A stretch of 64,000 bases of DNA from IMG/VR virus record IMGVR_UViG_3300017589_000047, positions 1 through 64,000 of that record; one strand, given 5' to 3'. The DNA comes from a virus. The first letter of the stretch is position 1. Each line of letters begins with the position of its first letter. A program made the position numbers and the translations under genes. This document shows positions 4,404 to 20,379 of this stretch, in pieces. The notes under the pieces are model-generated. The model saw only the letters and a program-made list of their open reading frames with translations. It was not told the DNA's origin and searched no databases.

Positions 4404-4796
4404 GTGATAGTATTGAATGATAAAATTGGAAAAAGAATAAAGGATATAAGAGAAAATAAAAAAATAACTCAGAAGGATTTTGGAGAAGAAATTGGCGTAA
4501 GTAGAGATGTTATTAGCAATATAGAATATGGTAGAGTAGAAGTTAAAGAGCATATAATAAAATTAATTATAATGAAATTTAATGCATCTGAAGAATGGCT
4601 CCGAACCGGAGAAGGAGAAATGTATAATTCATATAATAAAGAGGATGAATTAGATTATTTAGTAGGTGCACTTGCCGCTAAAGATAATAAATTTAAAAGA
4701 AAATTCATTACTTTTATGCTTAAACAACCAGATGAAAACTGGGATATGATTGAAAACATGATTATAGAATTTAATAATTATTTAAATAAAAAATAA
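4404..4796 (+). CDS. XRE-family (CI-like) repressor
   Basis: HTH ITQKDFGEEIGVSRDVISNIEYG. The likely true start is TTG 4413, 6 nt after GAGGTG. It diverges from the leftward operon. Confidence 0.8.
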   Translation: MIVLNDKIGKRIKDIRENKKITQKDFGEEIGVSRDVISNIEYGRVEVKEHIIKLIIMKFNASEEWLRTGEGEMYNSYNKEDELDYLVGALAAKDNKFKRKFITFMLKQPDENWDMIENMIIEFNNYLNKK

Positions 4797-5153
4797 GTCC
4801 CTATTAGGACTTATTTTTTTCGTACCCATCTATGTAAGCCAAAATCTTGTTAATTAGTATTTCATCTTGCGTTTCTTTAAGCTTTTCAATTGCTTTATTC
4901 CTTTTTTCTTCCATAGAGCCCCCAATATTATGTATGTTACTTTATTATAGAACAATCGTTCGATTAATTTACATTATACTCTTAATATAAATCGATGTCA
5001 ATGAGATATAATATCTTGTCGAAACGTGTTCATTCTTATATGATAATCCCCTACATGATTAATGTCAATCTCAAATAAAATCATAATGTATATGTTGTTG
5101 TATATGTAAATTATATATATTATACTTTAATATGTAAATGTTAGGGGGATATT

Positions 5154-5465
5154 ATGGATATTACGTTTGGTGACAGATTAAAAAAATTGAGAGCAAATAA
5201 AAACATGCTACAGAAACAAGTCGCACAAGATTTAAATATTACTGTACAAAGATATTCTAGTTATGAAAATAATTCTAGGCTCCCTGAAGTAACAATAGCA
5301 ATAAAAATTGCCAATTATTACAATGTATCTCTTGATTATTTATTTGGACTTGACAATAAAACTTATCTGGATAAATCAAACTTACAGAATCAAATAAAAG
5401 AATTAAAAAACGAGCTTAACAATCGAATGAATAAACTTGAAGAATATATTAACAATACTAAGTAG
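5154..5465 (+). CDS. XRE-family HTH regulator
   Basis: LQKQVAQDLNITVQRYSSYENNSRLPEVTIAIKIANYYNVSLDYLFG. GGGGGA RBS. Confidence 0.8.
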   Translation: MDITFGDRLKKLRANKNMLQKQVAQDLNITVQRYSSYENNSRLPEVTIAIKIANYYNVSLDYLFGLDNKTYLDKSNLQNQIKELKNELNNRMNKLEEYINNTK

Positions 5466-5571: not shown

Positions 5572-6810
5572 ATGAATTATATCAAATCATCTTTTAGAAT
5601 ACAAGTAAAAAATGAAAGGATGATAAAATTGAAAGGTACTATTTACAAAAGAGGAACTACTTACACGTATATGCTTGATTTAGGCAAGGATCCAATTACT
5701 AATAAAAGGCATCGAATAAGCAAAAGTGGATTCAAGACTAAAAAAGGATGTCAAGCTGCTCTTGCTGAAATCCAAACGCAATATAATCAAGGAATATATG
5801 TGAACGAGTCTGAAATAACATTAAAAGATTTTATTGAAGAATGGATAGAACTCTATGAAAAATCAGGTACTGTCAAGATAAGTACTGTTAGAGTTCGCAA
5901 ACATGAAACAAACAATATGCTTCTATATTTTAAAACTGTTAAATTAAAAGATATCACAAGGCATATGTACCAAGATTTTTTATTTACTATGAATGACAAA
6001 TTTGCTGAAAACACTCTTTCAGGTATTCATGGAACTGCACGATCAGTTTTCAAGAAAGCTATAGAATTAAAATATATAAAAGAAGATCCTACCGAATATA
6101 CAGTATTGCCAAAAATACAAAAAACAGTCGAAGAGCTAGAGTGTGAGAAACTGGTACCTAAGTATTTTGAACTGAAAGAATTGAATAATTTCCTTAATGC
6201 TTGTAAAAGAGATAATGATCCACAAGTTCATACTATATTTATGACTTTAGCATATACAGGAATGAGAATCGGTGAGCTATGTGCTCTCAAATGGAAAGAC
6301 ATTGATTTTAACGCAAAGGAAATAAATATATACAAAACATACTACAATCCAACTAATAAAACAGATAAATATACTTTACTAACACCAAAGACTACAACAT
6401 CAAAGCGTAAAATTTTTATAGACAATATGCTCATCAAAGAGCTTAAGAAGCATAAAAAATACCAAGATGAACTAAGGTTAAAAATTCCATCTTGGTTTAA
6501 AGAGGACGGAAATTTTGTTTTTACAAAAGCTTTAAATTATCCTGGCTATCCCGAAGTGATTAAACAGATTGAACTTAAAATGGCGCAGGTAATAAAGAAG
6601 AATGGATTATTGAAAGAGATCACACCTCATGGTTTGCGCCATACACATGCCTCTTTGCTAGCACAAGCCGGAGTAAGCCTTGAAGAAATTATGGAGCGTC
6701 TGGGTCATAAAAATGATTCCATCACTCGTGAAATTTATCTACATGTAACGCAGGATATGAAAAAAGAAGCTTCATCAAAGTTTATGAATTTATTAATAAC
6801 TGCAAAATAA
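5572..6810 (+). CDS. int: Tyrosine site-specific integrase
   Basis: N-terminus KGTIYKRGTTYTYMLDLGKDPITNKRHR (arm-binding type). Catalytic residues appear as ...YTGMRIGEL...HGLRHTHAS...LGH...Y. The probable real start is ATG 5620. Confidence 0.9.
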   Translation: MNYIKSSFRIQVKNERMIKLKGTIYKRGTTYTYMLDLGKDPITNKRHRISKSGFKTKKGCQAALAEIQTQYNQGIYVNESEITLKDFIEEWIELYEKSGTVKISTVRVRKHETNNMLLYFKTVKLKDITRHMYQDFLFTMNDKFAENTLSGIHGTARSVFKKAIELKYIKEDPTEYTVLPKIQKTVEELECEKLVPKYFELKELNNFLNACKRDNDPQVHTIFMTLAYTGMRIGELCALKWKDIDFNAKEINIYKTYYNPTNKTDKYTLLTPKTTTSKRKIFIDNMLIKELKKHKKYQDELRLKIPSWFKEDGNFVFTKALNYPGYPEVIKQIELKMAQVIKKNGLLKEITPHGLRHTHASLLAQAGVSLEEIMERLGHKNDSITREIYLHVTQDMKKEASSKFMNLLITAK

Positions 6811-6839
6811 AAACCGAGATTGTCATAATCTCGGTTTTT
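6811..6839 (+). terminator. Intrinsic terminator after int
   Basis: AAAACCGAGATT-GTCATA-AATCTCGGTTTTT. Confidence 0.8.
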
Positions 6840-6852
6840 AATCTTAATGGCT

Positions 6853-6866
6853 ACAAAATGGCAACA
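6853..6866 (+). repeat. Direct repeat copy 1, ACAAAATGGCAACA (candidate att core)
   Basis: Identical 14-mer at 7055-7068. A 10-nt core recurs at 17416-17425. Confidence 0.6.
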
Positions 6867-7054
6867 TGTAATACTTTCAAATCATTAAATGCATTGATTT
6901 CAACGCATATATCACTTTATTACATCATTCCGCCCATGATAAATAGTAATTATATAACCATATATAAATTATATAAAGTGAATAAAGTGCGTAAAATCAA
7001 CATATTTGTGAAAGCTTGTACATTTGATTTACTTGATTTATTTTAATTGCGTCA

Positions 7055-7068
7055 ACAAAATGGCAACA
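7055..7068 (+). repeat. Direct repeat copy 2, ACAAAATGGCAACA
   Basis: Identical to 6853-6866 and followed by a second partial copy, ATGGCAACA. Confidence 0.6.
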
Positions 7069-7082
7069 ATGGCAACAAGCAA

Positions 7083-7112
7083 AAAGAACTGTCGATTATG
7101 GCAGTTCTTTTA
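7083..7112 (-). terminator. Intrinsic terminator ending the leftward operon of element 2
   Basis: Minus strand reads AAGAACTG-CCATAATCGA-CAGTTCTTTTTG. It overlaps the Replic_Relax stop codon. Confidence 0.6.
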
Positions 7113-7605
7113 TATCTATTTTAATAACATCAATTACTTTACTACTAACATCTGCTTTGCTAACGAGTAACAGTTTTTTAAACTTTCCACATTCCTCATA
7201 CTTCTGTATCTTCCTAGCAATATTATTGTTGCTTAATTCAACTTCTACAGCCAATAATCCGCGTTTCCCGTTCTTTTCTATATCAAGCAACATATCGGGT
7301 CGCAAATTTCCGTATTCTTTCTGTATTTCAAAATCATGTATGGCGTAACAGTTTTCCCGAACCCAGCAATATGCTCTAGCAATATAATCAAGATGTAATT
7401 TTTGCTTGGGCTCTCTCTTTGTATAATAAAAATATTTGTCATTTGCTCCATGCCTGGATCTACGTAAATATAAATAATCATTTAAAAAAGTTAATCGCCT
7501 ATTTGCGACCCTTTGACTTGGATAAAACAGTTTCTGAATAGTATCAGAATAGCAAGGACATTTAGAAACAAATTCAACTACATCATAATCCCTATCAGTT
7601 ATCAA
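7096..7605 (-). CDS. Replication-relaxation (Replic_Relax) family protein
   Basis: ITDRDYDVVEFV...TIQKLFY...ANRRLTFLNDYLYLRR at the N-terminus (wHTH) and RPDMLLD...AVEVELS at the C-terminus fit the family pattern. Confidence 0.65.
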   Translation of the reverse strand: MITDRDYDVVEFVSKCPCYSDTIQKLFYPSQRVANRRLTFLNDYLYLRRSRHGANDKYFYYTKREPKQKLHLDYIARAYCWVRENCYAIHDFEIQKEYGNLRPDMLLDIEKNGKRGLLAVEVELSNNNIARKIQKYEECGKFKKLLLVSKADVSSKVIDVIKIDIKELP

Positions 7606-8417
7606 ATTAATGACACTTCCTTCAATTCTACAGGCTCAATTTTTTTGACATTTTTAAGAGGTATTATATTACCTGAATTACATTTCATAAAAATTTGCTT
7701 CTTAATTTCTCTGTCCTCTAAGAAAAAGCTCTTGAACTCCACGTCTTGATTATCATTAGTCAAAATAGCTTCGCCCTTACCATGCAGATTAGTCACAGCC
7801 CTGTAATCGCCTTTATCAAGCAATATTTCGCTATTATAAGTATTCCTAACCTTAAATGCTATCGTATTATTAAGATTAGCCTTTAACTTTGTATCGAGGT
7901 TTTCGTGGCATGGTCGTTGTATACTTAATATAACTTTTATATTTGCCGCCCTAGCTTGTGCAAGAATTATATTTAATTGCTTATTAAACTTCTTATCATC
8001 GCTTAACATTGTATATTCTTCAATTAAAACAATTATAGGCTTCATGATGTTTTTAAATCTCTTGTTATAGTCTTTAAAATCCTTGCAATTTGTTTTATCT
8101 AATTCTTTAAATCTGCCAATCATTATTTGTTTTATATTATCAATCTCGATTTCAGCATCTTCAATATTTTTTATGAACGCTGTAAGGTGTTTATAATTTC
8201 TAAATACATTATAGTCACCGCCCATTTTCATGTCAATAATTTTAATCTCAACATCTTTTAAGCACATAGCGGTTAATAAACATTTTATACATGCAGTTTT
8301 ACCGCTTCCAGTTATTCCCCCCACCAAAACATGTGGTTGACTTTCTAAATCTATATATACTATTTTTTCACCTTCAGCCGTAATAGTTACGCCAATCGGA
8401 AATATCATTTTATTCAT
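7602..8417 (-). CDS. FtsK/SpoIIIE-family DNA translocase ATPase
   Basis: Walker A GGITGSGKT and Walker B-like IIVLIEEY. It overlaps the downstream gene by 4 nt. Confidence 0.85.
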   Translation of the reverse strand: MNKMIFPIGVTITAEGEKIVYIDLESQPHVLVGGITGSGKTACIKCLLTAMCLKDVEIKIIDMKMGGDYNVFRNYKHLTAFIKNIEDAEIEIDNIKQIMIGRFKELDKTNCKDFKDYNKRFKNIMKPIIVLIEEYTMLSDDKKFNKQLNIILAQARAANIKVILSIQRPCHENLDTKLKANLNNTIAFKVRNTYNSEILLDKGDYRAVTNLHGKGEAILTNDNQDVEFKSFFLEDREIKKQIFMKCNSGNIIPLKNVKKIEPVELKEVSLI

Positions 8418-8431
8418 TATAAATTATCCTC

Positions 8432-8860
8432 CTATACGTCATAATTTGGCTTATAAACACTTTTATATTGAACATCGAATATTTGTATCATAAGATTAAA
8501 ATTATTTGTTAGTTCTATTTTAACAGGCTTTTTAATAGCTGTTTCAATTTCTGTTTGATGGTCCGTAAAATCTTTTAAACATAATCCTACTGGAATATTA
8601 AAAATATACCTATCTCCTAATTCGTTTTTAGATTTCTTAAGCAACTTTGGTAATTTTTTATCCGCGGTGCAATACAAGCCTAAATTTGTAAATAAAATTT
8701 TCCATTTATCTCTCTTAAAGTCGCTAACTAACAATCCACTACTTAAAACAGATAAAACTATACTGCATATTTTTACACAAGGAACTACACTACCAAATAT
8801 AAATAAAAATATACAACCTACTAAGCAATAAATATCTTTCATTAAATTCTTAGTATTCAT
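8432..8860 (-). CDS. Membrane protein, probable N-terminal partner of the FtsK-like ATPase
   Basis: Two hydrophobic helices (CLVGCIFLFIFGSVVPCVKICSIVLSVLSSGLLV), sitting directly upstream of the ATPase gene. Confidence 0.5.
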   Translation of the reverse strand: MNTKNLMKDIYCLVGCIFLFIFGSVVPCVKICSIVLSVLSSGLLVSDFKRDKWKILFTNLGLYCTADKKLPKLLKKSKNELGDRYIFNIPVGLCLKDFTDHQTEIETAIKKPVKIELTNNFNLMIQIFDVQYKSVYKPNYDV

Positions 8861-9847: not shown

Positions 9848-10546
9848 CTATCTCTGCTTTTTATATTCATTATTGTACCATTCTATAAATTCACCATGCA
9901 ATTTTTTCTTTGCTTCTTGATAAGCTTCACTTGCATCTTCCGCTTTATCAAATCTACCTAAAAAATAATGTTTTTTCTTAAACCCTATTTGTGCAATAAA
10001 TTTATTACGTTTTTCATCAAAGCATACTCCTTTAAAACCTGTTTTATTAGTTTTCAACAATTTGTTGCTTTTAATAACTTTAATATGCGTATTCTGAATA
10101 ACATTTTCTTTAACATTTAATTCGCCAATCCGTTTACCATAAATCGAACGTAATTCGTCTGTTAAGCATCCGCAACTTTGAACCCTTTTCCCTGTTAAAT
10201 CACCCTCACTAACTTCCTTAATATTTCCACATTTGCATTCACATTTCCAAACAACGCATCCGTTTTCAGCTCGTTTCTTAGTAGGCTCTATTGCTTTAAG
10301 CCTCCCAAATATTTGATTTGTTAAATTATTAGTTTTAAACTGCGTTGATTCCATAGAGCAACCACAACTTTTTTGGCCTCTAGTTATGCAATCTGCACGT
10401 ATCCATTTCTCGTTTTCGCAATCGCATTTACAGTAATAAAAAGTTCGCGTTCTGCCCTTATCGTCTAGTTCCCTTTTTCTCTTTAATATTTCCAGCATTC
10501 CGATTTTTTGCCCTGTTAAGTCCATTGACTTTGACATACTTATCAC
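9848..10546 (-). CDS. AP2-domain DNA-binding protein with two N-terminal Cys-rich modules
   Basis: C-terminus TGFKGVCFDEKRNKFIAQIGFKKKHYFLGRFDKAEDASEAYQEAKKK is an AP2/ERF-type fold signature. The N-terminus has CKCDCxxE...CGCS and CECKCGN...CGCL. Confidence 0.65.
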   Translation of the reverse strand: MISMSKSMDLTGQKIGMLEILKRKRELDDKGRTRTFYYCKCDCENEKWIRADCITRGQKSCGCSMESTQFKTNNLTNQIFGRLKAIEPTKKRAENGCVVWKCECKCGNIKEVSEGDLTGKRVQSCGCLTDELRSIYGKRIGELNVKENVIQNTHIKVIKSNKLLKTNKTGFKGVCFDEKRNKFIAQIGFKKKHYFLGRFDKAEDASEAYQEAKKKLHGEFIEWYNNEYKKQR

Positions 10547-10560
10547 CCACTTAACATCTT

Positions 10561-11970
10561 TTAATTAATAATATTTTTATATATTGACCTGAGAACCTTT
10601 TCTTCATTTTGCTGATTGAGATATACTACTTTGATGTTTTTCCCCTCGATAGCAGACATTATTTTATAGTAAATGCTATGATTAAGATAGTTGGGGTATA
10701 TAAACACAACATTGATATTATCTACTATTCTAGCATCAAAATTCATATTATCAGGATGAACGAAGATAAAACTAGGTAAATTCTCCTTCATTTTTTGTTG
10801 CCACTTCTCATGACCGCCGATTAAGACGGCTTTAAACGACTTTAATCCATCAAGATTGATTTCTATATCCTTGCATTCTATCTGCTTGTCTAAATCAAAT
10901 ATAAACTCTCTTAGTCCGTTCAATTCTTGCCTGTTTCTCTTTTCATCTTCCAATTCTGCTTTAAGACGTATATTTTCTTTTTCTAAAAGTCCATGTGTTT
11001 TTTGAAGCTCTGATAAACCCTGCCTTGCAGTAAATAATTGTTCTTCATTAGCATTTAACAATTTCTCTAGTCCATCTAACTCAACATACATAGTTTCTTT
11101 GTTGTTTTCAAAATACATTTGTTTTACTTGTTTATATGCTTTTATTAGATATAAAATATACATGTAAGATATTAAAAATTTCGTTGCATCTTGAATATTT
11201 TCTAAATTTTCATTTTCTAAAATGTATAAATATAATATAAAATCTATATCACCATCAGTAAATTTAATATCTTGAAATATTGAGTCGCTTGATAATCTTT
11301 CATAATCAAATAAAAACGTGCATTGCTCCATTTTTTTTTCTTCAAGCACATTTCTTACGATATCATCATAGTTTTTAATAATTCCATATTTTTTATATAT
11401 GTCATTCTTCAATTTTTTAATATTGTATTTTCCCGTATCATTTACTTTGTTTAGACTAATTCTCGTATTTAAAGCGTCTTTATAATGTCCTAGCCTATCA
11501 TGCATCATCATTAAAATTTCATTGTATTTTTCATCTCTTATAATCTCATTGCCATTATTTAGTGATAGAATCAATAAAATATTAAAATTGTAATCTATGG
11601 GATTATCATTTGAATCCATATTGTTTTTGAATTTTTTAGCAAATGCTTTGTGATAATCTTGAAATTTAATAACTTGATGATTTTCTACATACAAATAGGT
11701 CCATCTATAAGCTTTGAATATTAAATCATATAATTTATCGTTAATTTCTTCATTTTTTCCAGCTGCTGCAATTATACCTAATATCTTTTTACAATATTCT
11801 TCTTGTAACAATGAGCCTTCTGTTACCATTTGATGATTATATAATTCATGCTCTTTAGCTGCTTTATAAAATTCGTATTTATTTGCTTGATAAACCTTAT
11901 CTATGTCTTTATATATTTTTTTATTATTTCCTAGTGCCTCAATTATAAATGGTAGCAGATTCAATTCCAT
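10561..11970 (-). CDS. 469-aa hypothetical protein: helical N-terminus, central coiled coil, DUF2325-like C-terminus
   Basis: C-terminus AVLIGGHEKWQQKMKENLPSFIFVHPDNMNFDARIVDNINVVFIYPNYLNHSIYYKI resembles the DUF2325 pattern (GG...D-V-I...sH). GGAGG RBS. Confidence 0.5.
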   Translation of the reverse strand: MELNLLPFIIEALGNNKKIYKDIDKVYQANKYEFYKAAKEHELYNHQMVTEGSLLQEEYCKKILGIIAAAGKNEEINDKLYDLIFKAYRWTYLYVENHQVIKFQDYHKAFAKKFKNNMDSNDNPIDYNFNILLILSLNNGNEIIRDEKYNEILMMMHDRLGHYKDALNTRISLNKVNDTGKYNIKKLKNDIYKKYGIIKNYDDIVRNVLEEKKMEQCTFLFDYERLSSDSIFQDIKFTDGDIDFILYLYILENENLENIQDATKFLISYMYILYLIKAYKQVKQMYFENNKETMYVELDGLEKLLNANEEQLFTARQGLSELQKTHGLLEKENIRLKAELEDEKRNRQELNGLREFIFDLDKQIECKDIEINLDGLKSFKAVLIGGHEKWQQKMKENLPSFIFVHPDNMNFDARIVDNINVVFIYPNYLNHSIYYKIMSAIEGKNIKVVYLNQQNEEKVLRSIYKNIIN

Positions 11971-11999: not shown

Positions 12000-12473
12000 T
12001 TATTTCATGCTTGCTTTTAACTCATTCAACAATCTTTCTTTTTCTTTCTTATAAACTTCAAATGCTTTTTGAGGAGTATCAAAACTTCCTAATTCATATC
12101 TCTTTTTATTGTAATTTATTCTTGCTATATATTTTTTATTTTTTATTATTACCCCTTGAAATCCTGCCTTATTTGACGTATTAATTCTATTTAGTCCACT
12201 TATAGTTCTAATCTTTTTTATGTGCATGCTTCTGTTTACGTTTTTCTTATAACACCCACAACTTATAGTATTGAGTTGTTTTAAATTCTGAGCATCAACT
12301 ATAATTTCATTTCCACACCTACATATACATAACCATCTAGCTCTCTTTATACCTTTACAATTCCGGTTTTCTGCTCTTTTTATGACTTTTAAAAATCCAA
12401 AAATTTTATTAGTTAAATCATCTGCCTTTCTTCCCATATAATCACCCATATTATTGTAAAATATTTTGTACAT
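12000..12473 (-). CDS. AP2-domain DNA-binding protein (shorter paralog of 9848..10546)
   Basis: CICRCGNEIIV...SCGCY followed by AGFQGVIIKNKKYIARINYNKKRYELGSFDTPQKAFEVYKKEK. Confidence 0.65.
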   Translation of the reverse strand: MYKIFYNNMGDYMGRKADDLTNKIFGFLKVIKRAENRNCKGIKRARWLCICRCGNEIIVDAQNLKQLNTISCGCYKKNVNRSMHIKKIRTISGLNRINTSNKAGFQGVIIKNKKYIARINYNKKRYELGSFDTPQKAFEVYKKEKERLLNELKASMK

Positions 12474-12539
12474 TATAACATAAAATATAAAAAAGGGGAA
12501 TAAAAATCCCCATGAATTTTCAAATGTGTCAATAAACCC

Positions 12540-12680
12540 CTATGCTTCTTCAACTTCGTAAACTTCATAATTTATATTTGCTTCTATATCCATATCCAAT
12601 GTATCAAGCACCATTGTTTTTGCTTGTTCCTCTGTTTCTGCTTCTACATCAAATCTAATAAAAACTCCGTATTTCGCCAT
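12540..12680 (-). CDS. 46-aa acidic hypothetical protein (not in ORF track)
   Basis: ATG 12680 follows CATGGAGG. It reads MAKYGVFIRFDVEAETEEQAKTMVLDTLDMDIEANINYEVYEVEEA, and its TAG stop lies inside junction repeat (a). Confidence 0.5.
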   Translation of the reverse strand: MAKYGVFIRFDVEAETEEQAKTMVLDTLDMDIEANINYEVYEVEEA

Positions 12681-12719
12681 TTCAAACCTCCATGAATTTT
12701 TGAAACTCTCTATAAACCC

Positions 12720-13325
12720 CTATACAGTTCCTAATCCCTTTCTATTTGCGAACTTACTTTGCAATTCATCAATCGCGACATGTGTATAAATCATTGTGGT
12801 AGCTAAATTTGCATGTCCTAACAGGTCCTGAATTTCTCTTATGTTAAAATCTCCGCTTCGCAAAATATCAGTTGCAAATGAATGCCTTAATTTATGAGGA
12901 CTAACCTTTTTCTTTTCTGTTCCATCTTGAATAAATACGCCTGCACGTTCTGACATCCTGTAACATACTTCCCTTATATAATGCGTGTCAATAATGCCAC
13001 CTTTCATGGTACAGAAAAAATAATTACTTTCTGGTCTAAATTTTAACCATTCCAAACAAGCTTTTATAACATCCGTGTCCATTGGTATATATCTATCTTT
13101 CTTTTTGTCTTTTTTTCCCTTTGACTGCTGCACGTATATCAATTTAGTTTCAAAATTTACATCCGATAAAGCTAATTTTGCTACTTCTGACACTCTTAAC
13201 CCTGCTCTATACATCATCATTAGCATTGCATAGTTTCTGCATCCAGTCGGACATTTAGTATTTATTTCTGATAGCATTTTCAATGCATCTGTTTGACTTA
13301 TTGTTTTTGGTAATTTTAAAGACAT
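12720..13325 (-). CDS. Catalytic-core-only tyrosine recombinase (Xer-like, 201 aa)
   Basis: RAGLRVSEV...HKLRHSFAT...LLGH...TMIYTH gives the R..H-x-x-R..H..Y set. There is no N-terminal core-binding (SAM-like) domain. Confidence 0.8.
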   Translation of the reverse strand: MSLKLPKTISQTDALKMLSEINTKCPTGCRNYAMLMMMYRAGLRVSEVAKLALSDVNFETKLIYVQQSKGKKDKKKDRYIPMDTDVIKACLEWLKFRPESNYFFCTMKGGIIDTHYIREVCYRMSERAGVFIQDGTEKKKVSPHKLRHSFATDILRSGDFNIREIQDLLGHANLATTMIYTHVAIDELQSKFANRKGLGTV

Positions 13326-13344
13326 TCCATTTCCTCCCTATGAA

Positions 13345-13530
13345 TTAAATTATTCTAAATTTTATATTATCAAAAGTATTTGCATCTGGAACCATAGCTC
13401 CATCTGCTTCCATTTTTTCTAAATCGTCATAATAATTTTTGGCTTTCTGAACAGCTTACATTTTGCTATTTGCTTCAAACTCACGAATATACTTATATGT
13501 TTCAGTTATTTCTACTTTGTATTTTTTCAA
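13345..13530 (-). pseudogene. Small ORF interrupted by one in-frame TAA (24 + 36 codons)
   Basis: TTG 13530 follows GGGAGGTG. Hand translation: MKKYKVEITETYKYIREFEANSKM*AVQKAKNYYDDLEKMEADGAMVPDANTFDNIKFRII*. Confidence 0.4.
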
Positions 13531-13571
13531 ATAAACACCTCCCATGAATTAAAATTTTCTCTTATAAACCC

Positions 13572-13940
13572 CTATATCATTTCAAATCTAAGCTTAATTG
13601 CTTCTATAAAATAATCCTTGTTTTCGCCAGCATAAGCAAATATATTTATTACTGTATAATTGTATGCTTCATCGTCTTCGAATCCATCAAAACTATTAAA
13701 CAAGTTAAATGCTAATTTACAGCAAGCCATAGTTCCGCTTGTTTGCCATCCGCTATTTAAGCCTTTAAATTCAATATGATTTTCTTTAAAATTATACAAT
13801 GTATTAATATTTTTTCTTGTTTCTTGAAACATTGATAACAAATAAAACAAACTGATACGTTCAACATCACCGGAACTTAAGTTTGCATTTCTGATAAATC
13901 TTTCATATCCTTGTTGATGTTCTGCGTTTTTAAATTTCAT
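13572..13940 (-). CDS. Hypothetical protein
   Basis: ATG 13940 follows CATGGAGGTAGTT. The upstream ATG in the ORF track is part of the junction repeat. Confidence 0.55.
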   Translation of the reverse strand: MKFKNAEHQQGYERFIRNANLSSGDVERISLFYLLSMFQETRKNINTLYNFKENHIEFKGLNSGWQTSGTMACCKLAFNLFNSFDGFEDDEAYNYTVINIFAYAGENKDYFIEAIKLRFEMI

Positions 13941-14085
13941 AACTACCTCCATGAATTTTTAGGAAGGTCAATAAACCTTCCTTGATTTTTAGGCGGTCAT
14001 GATCTATAATACATATACCACCTTAATTGGTGTGTTGGTGTAGCATCTTAATAGCTTTGGTCGGCTCGTGCTACACCATTTTTAT

Positions 14086-14343
14086 TTACATTTCATTTAA
14101 TCTAATTGCTATTTTGTTCCCGTCTTGGACTGCTCCACCAAACGCATACAGATTATTATAAACCGCATTAAATGTTCCGTCATTTGCAACGTGTCCTGTT
14201 TTTTCAAATCCTTTTGTTGATAAAAAGTCATTTACAAAGTCGATTAAATTATCAACTGTTCTGCTTACTTTGATTTCAAAAAGTATTGATACTTGACCTT
14301 TTTTCAAACTTGGATTGCTTACAAATTGTTTATATCCCGTCAT
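14086..14343 (-). CDS. Hypothetical protein
   Basis: 85-aa ORF. GGAGGTATAGAAA-ATG is coupled to the upstream stop. Confidence 0.5.
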   Translation of the reverse strand: MTGYKQFVSNPSLKKGQVSILFEIKVSRTVDNLIDFVNDFLSTKGFEKTGHVANDGTFNAVYNNLYAFGGAVQDGNKIAIRLNEM

Positions 14344-14346
14344 TTT

Positions 14347-14784
14347 CTATACCTCCAATCTTAAAATTAAATCCAATGCTTCTTGCCTATACTTCCAATT
14401 ATTCCAGGCCTTTTTTAAATTTTCCCTTAGCTCCGCTGGCACTGTTTCAAGTTGCAAATTCAACAATTCGTTTTCAATCTTTTTAAGTTCTTGCTCTTTT
14501 TTCCAGCAAGCAACAATGTTATAATCAGTTACATCTAATCCAGCTTTTTTGTTTTCCTCAAATACCAGCTTGCAATAATTTTTAAAGTCTGCCTCACTCA
14601 TTAAAAAGTCGCTTGATGGATCTGTTATTCTTTTGCCTTCATCTTCTGTTATAAAGCAATTTTCATTTAATGCTCTTCGCTTGTTTTCTCCGTCGATTTC
14701 TTTCAGTGTCTCAACTTCTGCGTTTATCAATAAATATTTCTGTTGCTTGCTTCTGATTTGTAATCTTAATTTATTGTCTAACAT
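14347..14784 (-). CDS. Hypothetical protein
   Basis: ATG 14784 follows CATGGAGGATTTAAAA. It is the first gene after the triple junction repeat. Confidence 0.55.
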   Translation of the reverse strand: MLDNKLRLQIRSKQQKYLLINAEVETLKEIDGENKRRALNENCFITEDEGKRITDPSSDFLMSEADFKNYCKLVFEENKKAGLDVTDYNIVACWKKEQELKKIENELLNLQLETVPAELRENLKKAWNNWKYRQEALDLILRLEV

Positions 14785-15067
14785 TTTTAAATCCTCCATG
14801 AATTTAATTTTTGATTAATAAACCTACGAATTAAATATTATGTCTATAAACCCCTACAAGCCCATGAATCTTTTCGAGTGTCTATAAACCCCCTCGTTAA
14901 TGAGTAAAATCTAGGGAAAATCACAAGACGTATACTGATAATGACAATCAATATCATTTAGATGTCTGTAAGTGTTAAGGTCCATTTCTGGACCCGTCGG
15001 AATCTTGCCAGCTCCCCAAATTGAGGACAACCTCGGGACTTTTAATCGTTTTCGTACGATTCTCTCT

Positions 15068-15628: not shown

Positions 15629-15758
15629 TTTCAATTTTGTTGCAACCTTTGCCGCAACTCTCCTATTTTTTATTCCCTTTTTCAGGTTGAGCGGTGAGCC
15701 TTTCGGCTCTGCGGGATTTCACCACCATCGACCCTTGCCCTGTTTGGGTTTATACCAT

Positions 15759-16157: not shown

Positions 16158-16238
16158 TGATAAAACCTCCGATTTTGTAACTGGGCTTGCGACCAGTTCG
16201 CGCATTGCCAGGTATTTATTCCCCGTCACTCTGCTTGT

Positions 16239-17204: not shown

Positions 17205-17415
17205 AAGCAGGGTTTTTATAGCTCCGCTTTTTTCTTTTGCCTGGATCTATTTTCTTTCCTTTTCTTTTGCTGTCTAGCAATGCGTCTTTTCAGCATTGCG
17301 GTTCTTTTAATCTTTTGTTCTTTTGTTCTTTTGTCCTTATTCTTTATCATTTATTCCGGGCCCTGATGTTACTACTATCATATCGGCATATTCTTTATAT
17401 TATTATCACCAAGCC

Positions 17416-17425
17416 ACAAAATGGC
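17416..17425 (+). repeat. Direct repeat copy 3, ACAAAATGGC
   Basis: CCACAAAATGGC here against CTACAAAATGGC at 6851-6862. Confidence 0.45.
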
Positions 17426-17439
17426 CTATAACAAAAGTT

Positions 17440-17760
17440 AATATCAGTTTGATATCATTGTTTGATAGCCGTTGTTATATTGCATCCTATGCATTACTAT
17501 AAGTAATGCGTTATTGTATTATTCTTTCTGTTCGTAATGCATATGTAAAAATACAAGTGATTTGTTAATGATTACTATATGGTACAATTACATTTAGTTA
17601 CCGTATATAACGAATTGATTACGTTTAGTTACTGTTTGATTGTTATTGCATTCAATTAGTAATGAAATTAATAATGATTTATGATTAATAGTTTGTAGTT
17701 GCATCATATTAGATGTATATAGTAACAACTTAATGGTCAATGATTACTATTAGTAATGTA
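17440..17760. repeat. AT-rich field of TAGTAAT/ATTACTA and TTTAGTTAC motifs (iteron- or operator-like)
   Basis: Palindromes GCATTACT-ATA-AGTAATGC (17491-17509) and ATTACTA-T-TAGTAAT (17743-17757). AATGATTACTAT occurs twice (17567, 17739), CAATTAGTAATG at 17654, and (C)RTTTAGTTAC at 17591 and 17622. Confidence 0.6.
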
Positions 17761-18111
17761 TTTTTGTTATATGCGTTCTTTTAGTTAGATTACAGTATGT
17801 AGACCCCATTATAAACCTATATTGTGCAATATTTTGCATGCAATTTCTTGCAAAGCGTGAAATATGTTTCATGGTGAATGCAATGTAATAAATGTTACAT
17901 ACTATCTTTGTGCTTAATCGCGATACCGCATCACTCATGTATATATCGCATGTTTTGTGCATATTTATCATTTATCAGTATTTTAGCTGCCAAAACGTCG
18001 TATATACTACCGTTTCTCTACAGTTTCGGTACTATAGCTATTTGGACATGCTTTATGTTCCTTCCAGCGCTACAACTGCTACCACGCCCGGCTATTTTTA
18101 ATTATTTTTTT

Positions 18112-18160
18112 AAAGGGGGCGGGGGGCTCCTTGCCTGCGGCGCGGAGAGTTACTCCCCTA
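18112..18160. other. Isolated GC-rich island in a 1.3-kb non-coding AT-rich tract
   Basis: AAAGGGGGCGGGGGGCTCCTTGCCTGCGGCGCGGAGAGTTACTCCCC, with possible GGGG/CCCC and CTCC/GGAG pairing. Confidence 0.5.
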
Positions 18161-18520
18161 GAAAATATACCACCCTCACGGGAAAATTATTAATTTCATA
18201 TACAAAATATATATTCCATTTTCGATATAACGTAATTTATTATAATTCATTCCCAGAAGCCATAATTTGCGATATTTTAAACGAAAACATATAAATAATA
18301 CTAATGGTTATTGATATCAAAAATCATCTTTAAATGTAAGATATGCCTTGTAAAGAACCTAAAAATATAAAATATTAATTTTTATATCTGATTAATGAGT
18401 TGAAATCAATATTATAAATTACATGTTTACTACACTAAAACTACATGAAAACCTTCGATAAACCTCTATCCTATGCACTTTACATATCCTAAAATAAGAA
18501 GTATAATTATGATGTCAGAA

Positions 18521-18546
18521 GTGCCTAAGGAATTAGGTGCTTTTTT
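18521..18546 (+). terminator. Intrinsic terminator with no upstream CDS
   Basis: GTGCCTAA-GGAA-TTAGGTGC followed by TTTTTT. Confidence 0.55.
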
Positions 18547-18740
18547 ATATGTCTTTTTTTAAAAGATAAAGTCAAGAAAAATTAGTCATATACATAATAG
18601 TATATTACATTATACGTATCTGACTGACGGTTCTTTGGTAGCCCTTGAAATACTAACATGTATCAAGATTTCAAAGTGACCCAAAAGGGTACAATTAAAA
18701 TTGAGATTGCACCTAAAAAGGTCGCTTGGGAAGTGAGATA

Positions 18741-20304: not shown

Positions 20305-20379
20305 ATGGGAATAGTACAAAGGTTAGTGCAAGGGTCTTATAAGCCTCAAATATAGGTTCAATTCCTATTTCCCATACCA
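20305..20379 (+). tRNA. tRNA with anticodon UAU (Ile, AUA decoder), CCA encoded
   Basis: Folded by hand. Acceptor ATGGGAA/TTCCCAT has 7 WC pairs. U8 is present. D arm GTAC-AAAGGTTA-GTGC. Anticodon arm AGGGT-CTTATAA-GCCTC is weak (1 mismatch, 2 G.U). Variable loop AAAT. T arm ATAGG-TTCAATT-CCTAT. Discriminator A, then CCA. Confidence 0.7.

Follow-up and report, generated by a model that had tools for sequence, protein, structure and literature searches.

Why should a single conserved sequence reach from the stop codon of one gene to the Shine-Dalgarno (SD) sequence of the next, and recur between consecutive genes around a small tyrosine recombinase? This question is raised by a stretch of viral DNA of 64,000 nucleotides (IMG/VR record IMGVR_UViG_3300017589_000047, positions 1 to 64,000; hereafter the window), in which seven full copies and one half copy of a short repeat unit lie on the minus strand at 12508-14893, around a mini-recombinase gene. 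The answer we favor, tentatively and with slightly less than even confidence, is that the unit is a junction cassette acting at the level of the mRNA that is also a crossover point for gene swapping, as are the PeSL (promoter early stem-loop) repeats of phage T4. We place it at the mRNA level because it is transcribed, tied to stop codons, reused as ribosome-binding site (RBS) or terminator stem, related to hairpins and to a covarying RNA, and found in ribozyme-like positions. The unit is without an Rfam family and without a counterpart in deposited phage or plasmid records, and it is rare in IMG/VR; in kind, it resembles known repeated intergenic cassettes.

The repeat unit and its copies in the window

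The consensus of the unit is a frame of 30-31 nt, (A)TAGGGGTTTATCAGCAC-N4-W5-AATTCATRGG, with a 13-7-11 layout (conserved, variable and A/T-rich, conserved) that extends over 31-34 bp. The frame is fixed, since the distance from GGTTTAT to TTCAT is exactly 15 nt in 21 of the 21 seed copies; a first-pass annotation of the window had given the element a variable gap of 12-16 nt, which this constant spacing replaces. Where units stand head to tail, the period is about 28 nt and is made up of a core of 18-20 nt (AATTCATRGGGTTTATCAG) and a short A/T-rich variable spacer. The clearest tandem case is found in a relative, L095 5529-5700, where five copies follow each other (...AATTCATGGGTTTATCAG...); all such relative loci, designated here by L numbers, were retrieved through the recombinase. 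Given this period, the stop-to-SD element as originally described corresponds to two successive cores.

The left and right conserved blocks are neither inverted repeats of each other nor complementary, and all copies are direct repeats. Units E, G, and H of the window fold no better than shuffled sequences (z-scores of +1.4, -0.4, and -0.7), and no unit has an Rfam match at E values of up to 10, where the one family identified is Twister-P5, at 16181-16235. A hairpin version is found in relatives of higher GC content. It keeps the 30-nt register: a stem of 7 nt comes after GGTTTATCAG, an AGAAAT loop takes the place of WWAATT, and a G-rich 3' stem that of TCATRGG. In all seven window copies, the TCAG of the left block is altered in concert to (A/T)(A/G)A-type sequences.

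Copies were detected with a position weight matrix (PWM) built from 19 copies of the relatives and no window sequence. On the window, this PWM recovers units A-E, G, and H at 16.8-39.5 bits, all on the minus strand, where chance would give a mean of 0.115 matches at 10 bits or more (200 shuffles). A matrix of the same type has zero matches of at least 12 bits in 1.38 Mb of unrelated Xer loci, and mismatch searches with either half of the motif return good matches only at 12507-14893 on the minus strand. The PWM also reports one further minus-strand site, 10989-11022 (CAGGGTTTATCAGAGCTTCAAAAAACACATGGAC, 18.8 bits), which lies within the coding region of a 469-aa gene (phrog_11092) and is of uncertain status, i.e. 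chance or functional.

The array begins with three tandem units. Unit A (14893-14860; GGGGGTTTATAGACACTCGAAAAGATTCATGGGC, 35.4 bits) has no directly following gene. Unit B (14855-14822, 29.0 bits) has a degenerate right half (AATTCGTAGG) that also forms the beginning of unit C, in a 28-nt register. Unit C (14827-14794, 22.5 bits) holds in its right block the SD GGAGG (14797-14793) of a 150-aa gene, whose likely start is the ATG at 14784, and shares a short homology island with units of L011, L012, and L184. The right block of unit D (13980-13947, 16.8 bits) is the SD of a DUF6075 gene (Pfam; likely start 13940), and its left block lies in a local hairpin, GGAAGG-UUUAUUGA-CCUUCC (z-score -3.6). 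This DUF6075 gene is stopped by the TAG (13574-13572) of unit E (13573-13540, 39.5 bits), which is unstructured, shares islands of 88-91% identity with units of L011, L186, and L095, and provides with its GGGAGG the SD of a small, apparently frameshifted open reading frame (ORF). Half unit F (13346-13333) has the right block only (AATTCATAGGGAGG), which is the SD of the mini-recombinase gene and matches L184 1990-2009 at 100% across 20 nt. The recombinase gene is in turn stopped by the TAG (12722-12720) of unit G (12721-12688, 19.8 bits), whose GGAGG is the SD of a 46-aa gene, and the latter is stopped by the TAG (12542-12540) of unit H (12541-12508, 30.9 bits). The 3' GGGG of unit H is the 5' stem of the operon terminator, and this layout, i.e. 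unit, terminator, and TGTTATAAT promoter, recurs in L095 6551-6620.

Most of what the first-pass annotation had described thus stands. At least seven copies in 2.4 kb of the minus strand were reported, and all lie where they had been placed, with the seven full ones recovered by an independent PWM; the TAG is a real stop for the three upstream genes (DUF6075, recombinase, and 46-aa); three tandem copies do head the gene string; and the 201-aa recombinase gene lies inside the array, with units on both sides. The view that the trailing GGAGG is the SD of the next gene holds (as GGAGG or GGGAGG) for units C, D, E, F, and G, and fails for H, which is followed by a terminator and not by a gene. A clustered regularly interspaced short palindromic repeats (CRISPR) array had already been discounted, and we agree: the tandem period is 28 nt with only ~7-10 variable nt, and genes stand between most copies.

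The small gene between unit E and the recombinase (13326-13530, minus strand) seems broken. A 24-codon ORF that starts from TTG ends at a TAA, and the reading goes on in another frame (AVQKAKNYYDDLEKMEADGAMVPDANTFDNIKFRII); a frameshift, a pseudogene, or a sequencing error are all possible.

Junctions and gene turnover in related loci

All units of the window lie between one promoter and one terminator. The promoter, TTGACA-17-TATAAT (16864-16836, minus strand), agrees with the consensus at 12 of 12 positions and is divergent from an XRE (HTH_26) gene, while the intrinsic terminator at the end of the recombinase operon (12511-12495, minus strand) consists of GGGGAUUUUUAUUCCCC followed by a U-run. 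In L011, L012, L013/14, L095, L102, L103, L112, L176, L177, L184, L186, and L187, units are confined to the recombinase strand.

The link with stop codons extends well beyond the window. Across 303 kb, the left block occurs 76 times on the recombinase strand vs 8 times on the opposite strand. Upstream of 33 left blocks, the stop codon of an ORF of at least 40 codons lies no more than 9 nt away; for 25 of the 33, the distance is -1 to +2 nt. The stop codons at those 33 left blocks are mostly TAG (24, with 8 TAA and 1 TGA), compared with a whole-window usage of TAA 43, TAG 15, and TGA 14. A stop codon abuts the unit in at least 25 junctions from 17 loci, with TAG, TAA, and TGA all used, and the combination of stop codon and GGGGTTTAT at the 3' end of the recombinase gene is conserved across relatives.

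Alone, the left block is far more widespread than the full unit, and it occurs in five settings across the relatives and the window. It directly adjoins the stop codon of the recombinase, with a terminator hairpin after it; in L017, it is followed by GC hairpins without a U tract and then by an SD; it provides the real SD and spacer of genes (GGAGGGTTTATCA-ATG); it forms part of a three-way-junction RNA with conservation in the window, L177, L013, and L101; and it stands at the 5' end of the operon transcript, which in the window starts with the left-block-like UAUUAUCAGAUAG. For example, GGAGG(G)TTTATCA-ATG is the actual RBS of the mini-recombinase in L103, L102, L097, and L015, and an RBS of the same type, which reads GGAGGTTTTATCAATG and is left-block-like, serves the window gene that comes after a twister ribozyme. 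The right block is reused as well. It supplies the SD in units C to G, and its CATRGGG gives the terminator stem in window unit H, L095 6551, L187 2340, and L011 4545; at L102 361, the full unit itself folds as a terminator. Fusion with the SD is not obligatory, as L013, L112, and L176 have a separate AAGGAG farther downstream.

The three-way-junction RNA of the window (15680-15745, minus strand) reads AGGGCAAGGGU...GAAAUCCCG...ACCGCUCAACCU and is followed by an SD; it shows three compensatory base-pair changes and has no Rfam match. Homologues were found at L177 1635-1700, L013 5747-5812, L101 101-166, and L095 1870-1928, and in relatives this RNA holds the left block GGGUUUAUCAG together with a hairpin with an AGAAAU loop. 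Both the left block and the AGAAAU loop are common to the hairpin variants of the unit and this covarying RNA, and their register is the same.

Junctions of these operons are also occupied by ribozymes. Among the 13 loci with at least 2 kb of upstream sequence, 10 carry ribozymes of the Twister-P5, twister-P1, pistol, or hammerhead type upstream of the mini-recombinase and in the same orientation, and in L012 a complete unit lies directly 5' of a twister-P1 (4017-4068). The Twister-P5 self-cleaving ribozyme of the window (16181-16235, minus strand) scores 38.3 bits vs a gathering score of 37.6 and belongs to the same transcript as the units. It sits between a 136-aa gene and the gene with the left-block-like RBS. 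Clustering of ribozymes near integrase-family genes of prophages has been known for more than a decade: hammerheads lie near integrase genes and flank single genes of non-constant identity (PMC3088659), and the reason for the association between ribozymes and genes is given as undetermined (PMC6765202). Separately, the unit array of L012 contains an insertion (5903-7193) that consists of an IS605-family TnpB gene and a RAGATH-18 RNA (67.5 bits).

Comparisons of related loci also bear on whether the genes between units behave as cassettes, which the first-pass annotation had raised. In L011, L184, and L186, the genes between units differ and the units persist, which shows the predicted cassette behavior; replacements, insertions, and deletions of genes among relatives start and stop at units. 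The recombinases of these loci are 81-89% identical, their common genes are the recombinase and two small genes only, and all other between-unit genes are unrelated at E 1e-3. Units persist between these unrelated genes as islands of 31-60 nt with 93-97% identity (L186 957-1016 and L011 4545-4604; L186 1246-1290 and L011 4780-4824; L184 1977-2007 and L011 4790-4819). Identity is 82% within the recombinase gene and jumps to 99.6% for the unit and next gene, exactly at the boundary of stop codon and unit, and in L011 an HNH gene is inserted at this same recombinase stop/unit boundary. The L184 unit at 1205 looks hybrid: its left block is that of L011 unit 2903, its right block and SD are those of L011 unit 3745, and L184 is without the two L011 genes located between those two units. 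Window units show short islands of the same kind against L011, L012, L184, L186, L095, and L187.

Breakpoints have no single fixed position: they fall on either border of the intergenic island or within the left block, and the homology islands span the whole intergenic region to the start codon. Homologous exchange therefore fits these patterns better than a fixed crossover point. Alignment ends do accumulate at left blocks (25 vs 9.6 +/- 2.9 at random positions), which we judge to be weak because gene ends coincide with the blocks; these counts are superseded by the pairwise comparisons.

When the region was compared by megablast with deposited phages and plasmids, no match was obtained, and a first DNA-pattern scan of viral contigs gave chance matches in coding regions only. 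Protein scans of viral contigs identified one distant relative of the recombinase and none of DUF6075.

The mini-recombinase and the readings of the unit

The mini tyrosine recombinase (12720..13325, minus strand, 201 aa) is Xer-like and has the catalytic domain only, matching PF00589 alone (E 1e-36). Alignments place it on residues 92-261 of the XerA model and on the XerA/XerD catalytic domains in PDB. Models of 200-aa Fim-type invertases (NF007370 and NF007371) match residues 12-183 with an E of 2e-16, below cutoff, and integron-integrase models match residues 108-184 only, with 100 bits vs a 265-bit cutoff. Residues R44, K69, H144, R147, H171, and Y180 are invariant in 30 members of a large family, whose proteins (195-207 aa, 60-79% identical) come from Clostridia genomes and metagenomes. 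The exact window protein is absent from records, and tblastn against deposited records gives matches with <40% identity only, all of them generic Xer/integrase. True integrase genes are located nearby in the window, L013, L095, L099, L100, L177, and L184, and the mini-recombinase is therefore not the integrase of these elements. In one relative, it is fused to a C-terminal helix-turn-helix (HTH) domain that is 41% identical to the window XRE protein. Its similarity to the relaxase TcpM amounts to 37% across 46 residues, in box I only. A separate upstream gene for a core-binding domain was considered and rejected, as the small proteins upstream of the recombinase are mutually unrelated. A distant relative of the recombinase in L019 (5251-8795, minus strand) lies beside a 20-repeat CRISPR array whose 36-nt repeat, GTGTCAGCCGATCATAATGGCGCCTTCATAGGCGCC, is unrelated to the unit.

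Under the mRNA-level reading, the unit would be a portable intercistronic junction cassette. The operon concerned is an accessory one, found in a family of Clostridia temperate phages and integrative elements, where the late genes lie on one side of it and the attachment site on the other. The 5' block, (A)UAG-GGGGUUUAUCAG, closes the upstream frame and offers a G-run and spacer that are used elsewhere as a genuine RBS. An unstructured A/U-rich stretch comes next, and the 3' block, AAUUCAURGG, runs into the next SD or, at the operon end, into the 5' stem of the terminator. The unit would in this way punctuate a polycistronic RNA that is presumably also cut by ribozymes at other junctions, and each cistron may thereby gain a defined end and a standard translation start. 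Conservation beyond the SD probably reflects ribosome retention after termination, protection of 5' ends by the G-run, or a sequence-specific factor. Because the same sequence of ~35-60 nt stands at every junction, crossovers would also fall there when single genes are exchanged, homologous recombination being the simplest mechanism. Among the three options listed in the first-pass annotation, RNA processing or translational coupling is the one that fares best: transcription, the links with stops, SDs, and terminators, and the company of ribozymes all speak for it.

Several observations weigh against this account. Nothing points to what would read the parts of the unit outside the SD (UUUAUCAG, AAUUCAU), which exceed the recombinase gene in conservation. 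ORF-less tandem arrays, found in the window (A-C), in L095 (five units), and in L176 (three units), are unexplained by stop/restart punctuation and need an extra assumption, e.g. that they titrate a factor or have a protective or standby function. In L095, strong terminators enclose the mini-operon, and no recognizable sigma-70-type promoter lies upstream of its array; the array may therefore have a DNA-level role in transcription. Strict co-orientation and short intergenic placement are also true of DNA-level stoperators (PMC9283540). The concerted change of the left block in the window suggests co-evolution with an element-encoded factor, or homogenization. In addition, the association between unit and recombinase was tested mainly in one direction, because the loci were retrieved through the recombinase; stricter DNA-pattern scans of viral contigs found two true contigs, both with the recombinase, in addition to four chance matches. 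Three of these tensions, i.e. the ORF-less arrays, the concerted left block, and the promoter-less L095 array, show that the account is incomplete.

One alternative is that the units are DNA substrates of the mini-recombinase, which would act as a recombinase or relaxase-like nickase and excise or insert single-gene cassettes, as in an integron, a pdif module, or oriT-oriT recombination. We consider this somewhat unlikely. Units are densest within ~2 kb of the recombinase gene on both flanks, nearly every lineage shows an overlap of the left block with the recombinase stop codon, and the 13-7-11 layout of 31-34 bp is near the size of lox, FRT, or dif sites. The invariant catalytic hexad indicates an enzyme and not just a binder, and the HTH fusion of one relative argues for action on DNA. 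However, a homodimeric tyrosine recombinase site requires dyad arms that are 6-8 bp apart, whereas the blocks of the unit are not inverted repeats and no inverted copy lies nearby; the unit is also unfolded, and hence not attC-like. Without inverted-repeat arms and hairpin, it is not of the attC, dif, or lox type. The integron-like cassette junctions proposed in the first-pass annotation thus keep one leg, as gene content does vary between persisting units. Cassette turnover and a hybrid unit are indeed observed, but breakpoints lie at no one fixed position and islands reach the start codon, which points to homologous exchange as an explanation for the same data, and active direct repeats would keep deleting the operon. 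The relaxase variant gains from TcpM, MobK, and MpsA, which are also without a core-binding domain and work with the FtsK-like TcpA (PMC8152469, PMC5704250), and from an FtsK/TcpA-like gene that is 1-4 kb away in the window, L011, L184, L177, and L100. By contrast, the similarity with TcpM is confined to box I, and the FtsK-like gene is absent from many unit-bearing loci (e.g. L013 and L095). Integron-integrase models matched only partially and far below their cutoffs. We hold as unlikely the more specific proposal of a cassette exchanger borne by phages or integrative and mobilizable elements, in which the mini-recombinase would use asymmetric 31-bp non-dyad sites, e.g. through relaxase-like initiation and termination from unit to unit, and move single genes in a ribozyme-punctuated operon. 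If true, it would also explain the constant "integrase" neighbor of ribozyme-rich prophage operons.

Other readings give the unit a trans-acting partner. A sequence-specific nuclease of the phage or host could cleave the RNA at the units and make them equivalent to ribozymes, perhaps in an RNase Y-like manner guided by the G, the A/U-rich stretch, and a downstream hairpin. Units do share stop-to-SD positions with ribozymes in the same operons and adjoin them, as with the unit 5' of the twister in L012; a unit comes after a candidate four-way-junction RNA (described below) in the window, L011, L012, and L177; and in the hairpin variants of L017, a GC hairpin that has no U tract stands 3' of the left block. 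A review of such ribozymes states that cleavage seems needed and that the exact motif is unimportant (PMC6765202). Still, we regard this reading as rather improbable, as no conserved candidate nuclease gene is found in the operons, and linear units are without a downstream hairpin. Known RNase Y or RNase E sites need far less than 30 conserved nt. It is quite improbable, in our view, that the units are DNA operators of the stoperator or SPBRE (SPbeta repeated element) type, with which a regulator, perhaps the recombinase-fold protein itself, would silence or pace transcription from the tandem array as main operator. There is a precedent in MrpR, a repressor with a tyrosine-recombinase fold that acts on a repeated 15-bp intergenic element (PMC10516654), and L5-type stoperators are asymmetric, short intergenic, and transcription-oriented (PMC9283540). 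The tandem arrays that open the gene string (window A-C, L095), the L095 mini-operon without recognizable promoter, and the concerted left-block change, which suggests a cognate element-encoded factor, fit such a role as well. Yet the recombinase retains all catalytic residues and MrpR lost four of seven; the window sites are confined to 2.4 kb of 64 kb; XRE operators look different; and an operator has no need for the constant placement of three different stop codons, for reuse as RBS and terminator, or for hairpin homologues. Finally, each gene could have a start of its own, with every unit a promoter that an alternative sigma factor or an RNA polymerase of the phage recognizes, the left block being the -35 and the right block the -10 or initiation region. 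This is very improbable. The bipartite layout with fixed spacing and the lack of a sigma-70 promoter upstream of the L095 array would agree with it, as would CATAGGGAGG, which resembles the initiation region of T7-type promoters. However, the spacing places no sigma-70-like -10 element (by inspection), transcripts would begin at or past the SD, a good TGTTATAAT promoter stands ~20 nt upstream of one L095 unit, there are units that end in terminator stems, and no RNA polymerase or sigma gene is present among the window ORFs examined.

Binding by AP2 or XRE proteins, the remaining option of the first-pass annotation, is not supported. Most unit-bearing relatives (e.g. L012, L095, and L102) are without AP2-HNH genes, and the probable XRE operators at the divergent promoter are ATATCTTAAAAA repeats unrelated to the unit. 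In L011, two HNH-AP2 genes flank the mini-recombinase exactly where L186 has a unit or small gene, and the position of these AP2-HNH genes is consistent with inserted, free-standing homing endonuclease genes. Consensus sequences of known sites were also compared with the unit by eye, and none (CsrA-type GGA, CodY box, DnaA box, IHF site, and promoters of sigma-B/F/G/E/K or of extracytoplasmic function sigma factors) fits all copies. An invertible segment was rejected too, as only low-complexity, A/T-rich chance inverted pairs are found in 6.5-19.5 kb.

The interest of the locus is that it ties together three things: a conserved Xer-like enzyme with the catalytic domain only, a non-ribozyme junction element at ribozyme positions, and gene turnover. 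The identity of the mini-recombinase with the ribozyme-adjacent integrase genes of the literature is a candidate link only. The locus does offer a testable system, in which the sequence is defined and 31 nt long, the enzyme has 200 aa, and one strong promoter serves the operon, and it opens questions on cistron-by-cistron processing, the exchange of accessory genes, and the role of the mini-recombinase.

Operon setting and comparison with known systems

The window belongs to a temperate phage. It encodes an integrase with an arm-binding domain (5572-6810), cI/Cro-type HTH genes (4404-5465), an antirepressor, a capsid protein (28110), and an SNF2 helicase, and its late operon runs from 18.7 kb. 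The first genes of the late operon include a tRNA-Ile with anticodon TAT (20305-20379, plus strand). The ~1.5 kb (17205-18725) that separate the XRE gene from the first late-operon gene are without a convincing ORF and hold a terminator-like hairpin (17489-17511), a weak match resembling a counter-transcribed RNA (ctRNA; 17206-17240), and a palindrome (17825-17852).

Directly upstream of the tandem units is the candidate four-way-junction RNA (14962-15039, minus strand), which is conserved over ~80 nt, with homologues at L011 2812-2890, L012 4499-4577, and L177 2127-2205. It consists of GUCCCGAGGUUG, three hairpins, and YCAACGCUUACAGAC, with one loop conserved as YAAGAUU, and compensatory changes are found at six pairs among the four sequences. 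It has no Rfam match at E up to 10, and it always precedes a unit and SD, within ~10 nt in L011, L012, and L177. It is possible that this RNA is a new ribozyme or a processing RNA. Another conserved non-coding block (13981-14088, minus strand; AAUAAAAAUGGUGUAGCAC...GAUGCUACACC...GGCGGUAUA...CCGCCUAAAAAUUCAAG) is 76-80% identical to L184 1661-1764, L186 154-266, and L187 1434-1552, where the flanking genes differ; its stems are invariant, and for this reason provide no covariation evidence. This block and the two junction RNAs belong, with the Twister-P5, to the transcript of the units.

Downstream of the array are two HNH-AP2 genes, the phrog_11092 gene, and an FtsK/TcpA-like ATPase. The HNH-AP2 genes (phrog_374; 12000-12473 and 9848-10546, minus strand) flank the phrog_11092 gene. 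The ATPase gene (7602-8860, minus strand) is apparently split into ORFs of 142 aa and 271 aa, and the latter has 26% identity to TcpA of pCW3 (E 8e-20). L011 and L184 each have a single 515-aa FtsK/TcpA-like gene, followed by the same 172-aa partner.

How does the unit compare with systems that are already known? CRISPR arrays have repeats of ~23-50 nt with unique spacers of similar length, which is not the case here. Fim-type invertases are also catalytic-domain-only recombinases of ~200 aa, but their inverted repeats bracket an invertible segment; no credible ones were found in 6.5-19.5 kb, and no unit is on the opposite strand. Xer/dif and pdif sites have 28 bp, with 11-bp inverted arms and a 6-bp center, and pdif orientation alternates, whereas the arms of the unit are unrelated and its copies all direct. 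Against the dif site of B. subtilis, the outer-arm resemblances of the unit are, by inspection, ~8 bp too far apart. The TcpM, MobK, and MpsA relaxases share the catalytic-domain-only architecture, repeats that adjoin the gene, and, in several loci, a nearby FtsK/TcpA-like ATPase (PMC8152469). However, their oriT, where nicking is specific to site and strand, is a single locus beside the gene, for which dispersed multiple copies are atypical; the unit stands at each junction, and the FtsK-like gene is not always present. Upstream of tcpM, pCW3 itself (L179, 24660-24720) has four tandem direct repeats of the GGAACTTTA type, followed by inverted repeats.

Stoperators and the SPBRE sites of MrpR are likewise asymmetric, short intergenic, and transcription-oriented, and the binder of SPbeta has a tyrosine-recombinase fold (PMC9283540, PMC10516654). 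These sites are 13-15 bp long and genome-wide, while units are confined to one operon and tied to stops, SDs, and terminators. For example, L5-type stoperators comprise >20 genome-wide sites bound by the immunity repressor, compared with seven units in 2.4 kb and one outlier in the 64 kb of the window, and the catalytic residues lost by MrpR are intact in the mini-recombinase. Integrons, too, have co-oriented repeats right after the stop of promoterless genes, variable content, and a tyrosine recombinase at the locus. The attC site, however, is an imperfect palindrome of 57-141 bp (R''/L''...L'/R') that recombines as a folded single strand, and the unit is an asymmetric, unfolded 31 nt. In addition, IntI is divergent and beside attI and the Pc promoter, whereas the recombinase described here is inside the array and on the same strand, with neither IntI-specific features nor an attI/Pc arrangement.

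Closer to the unit are the ribozyme arrays of prophages, which occupy the same operons, strand, and stop-to-SD positions, flank genes of non-constant identity, and have an integrase-family neighbor (PMC3088659, PMC6765202). The unit differs in that it has neither conserved secondary structure nor an Rfam match; it is not a known ribozyme class, and cleavage would need a trans factor. With the PeSLs of T4, the unit shares the nature of a short regulatory repeat between small ORFs in a hyperplastic region, where indels and replacements end at the repeats, and where the repeats are both expression signals and crossover points (PMC2839356, PMC4122927). A PeSL consists of an early sigma-70 promoter and a terminator stem-loop, whereas the unit has no promoter, is mostly unstructured, and keeps a fixed 31-nt stop-to-SD frame; only some units carry or feed a terminator, and units are found in temperate elements of Clostridia, beside a mini-recombinase and ribozymes. 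Even if the unit were merely a shared translation-start and terminator cassette, it would still be a clean Gram-positive counterpart of the modular shuffling by PeSLs in T4.

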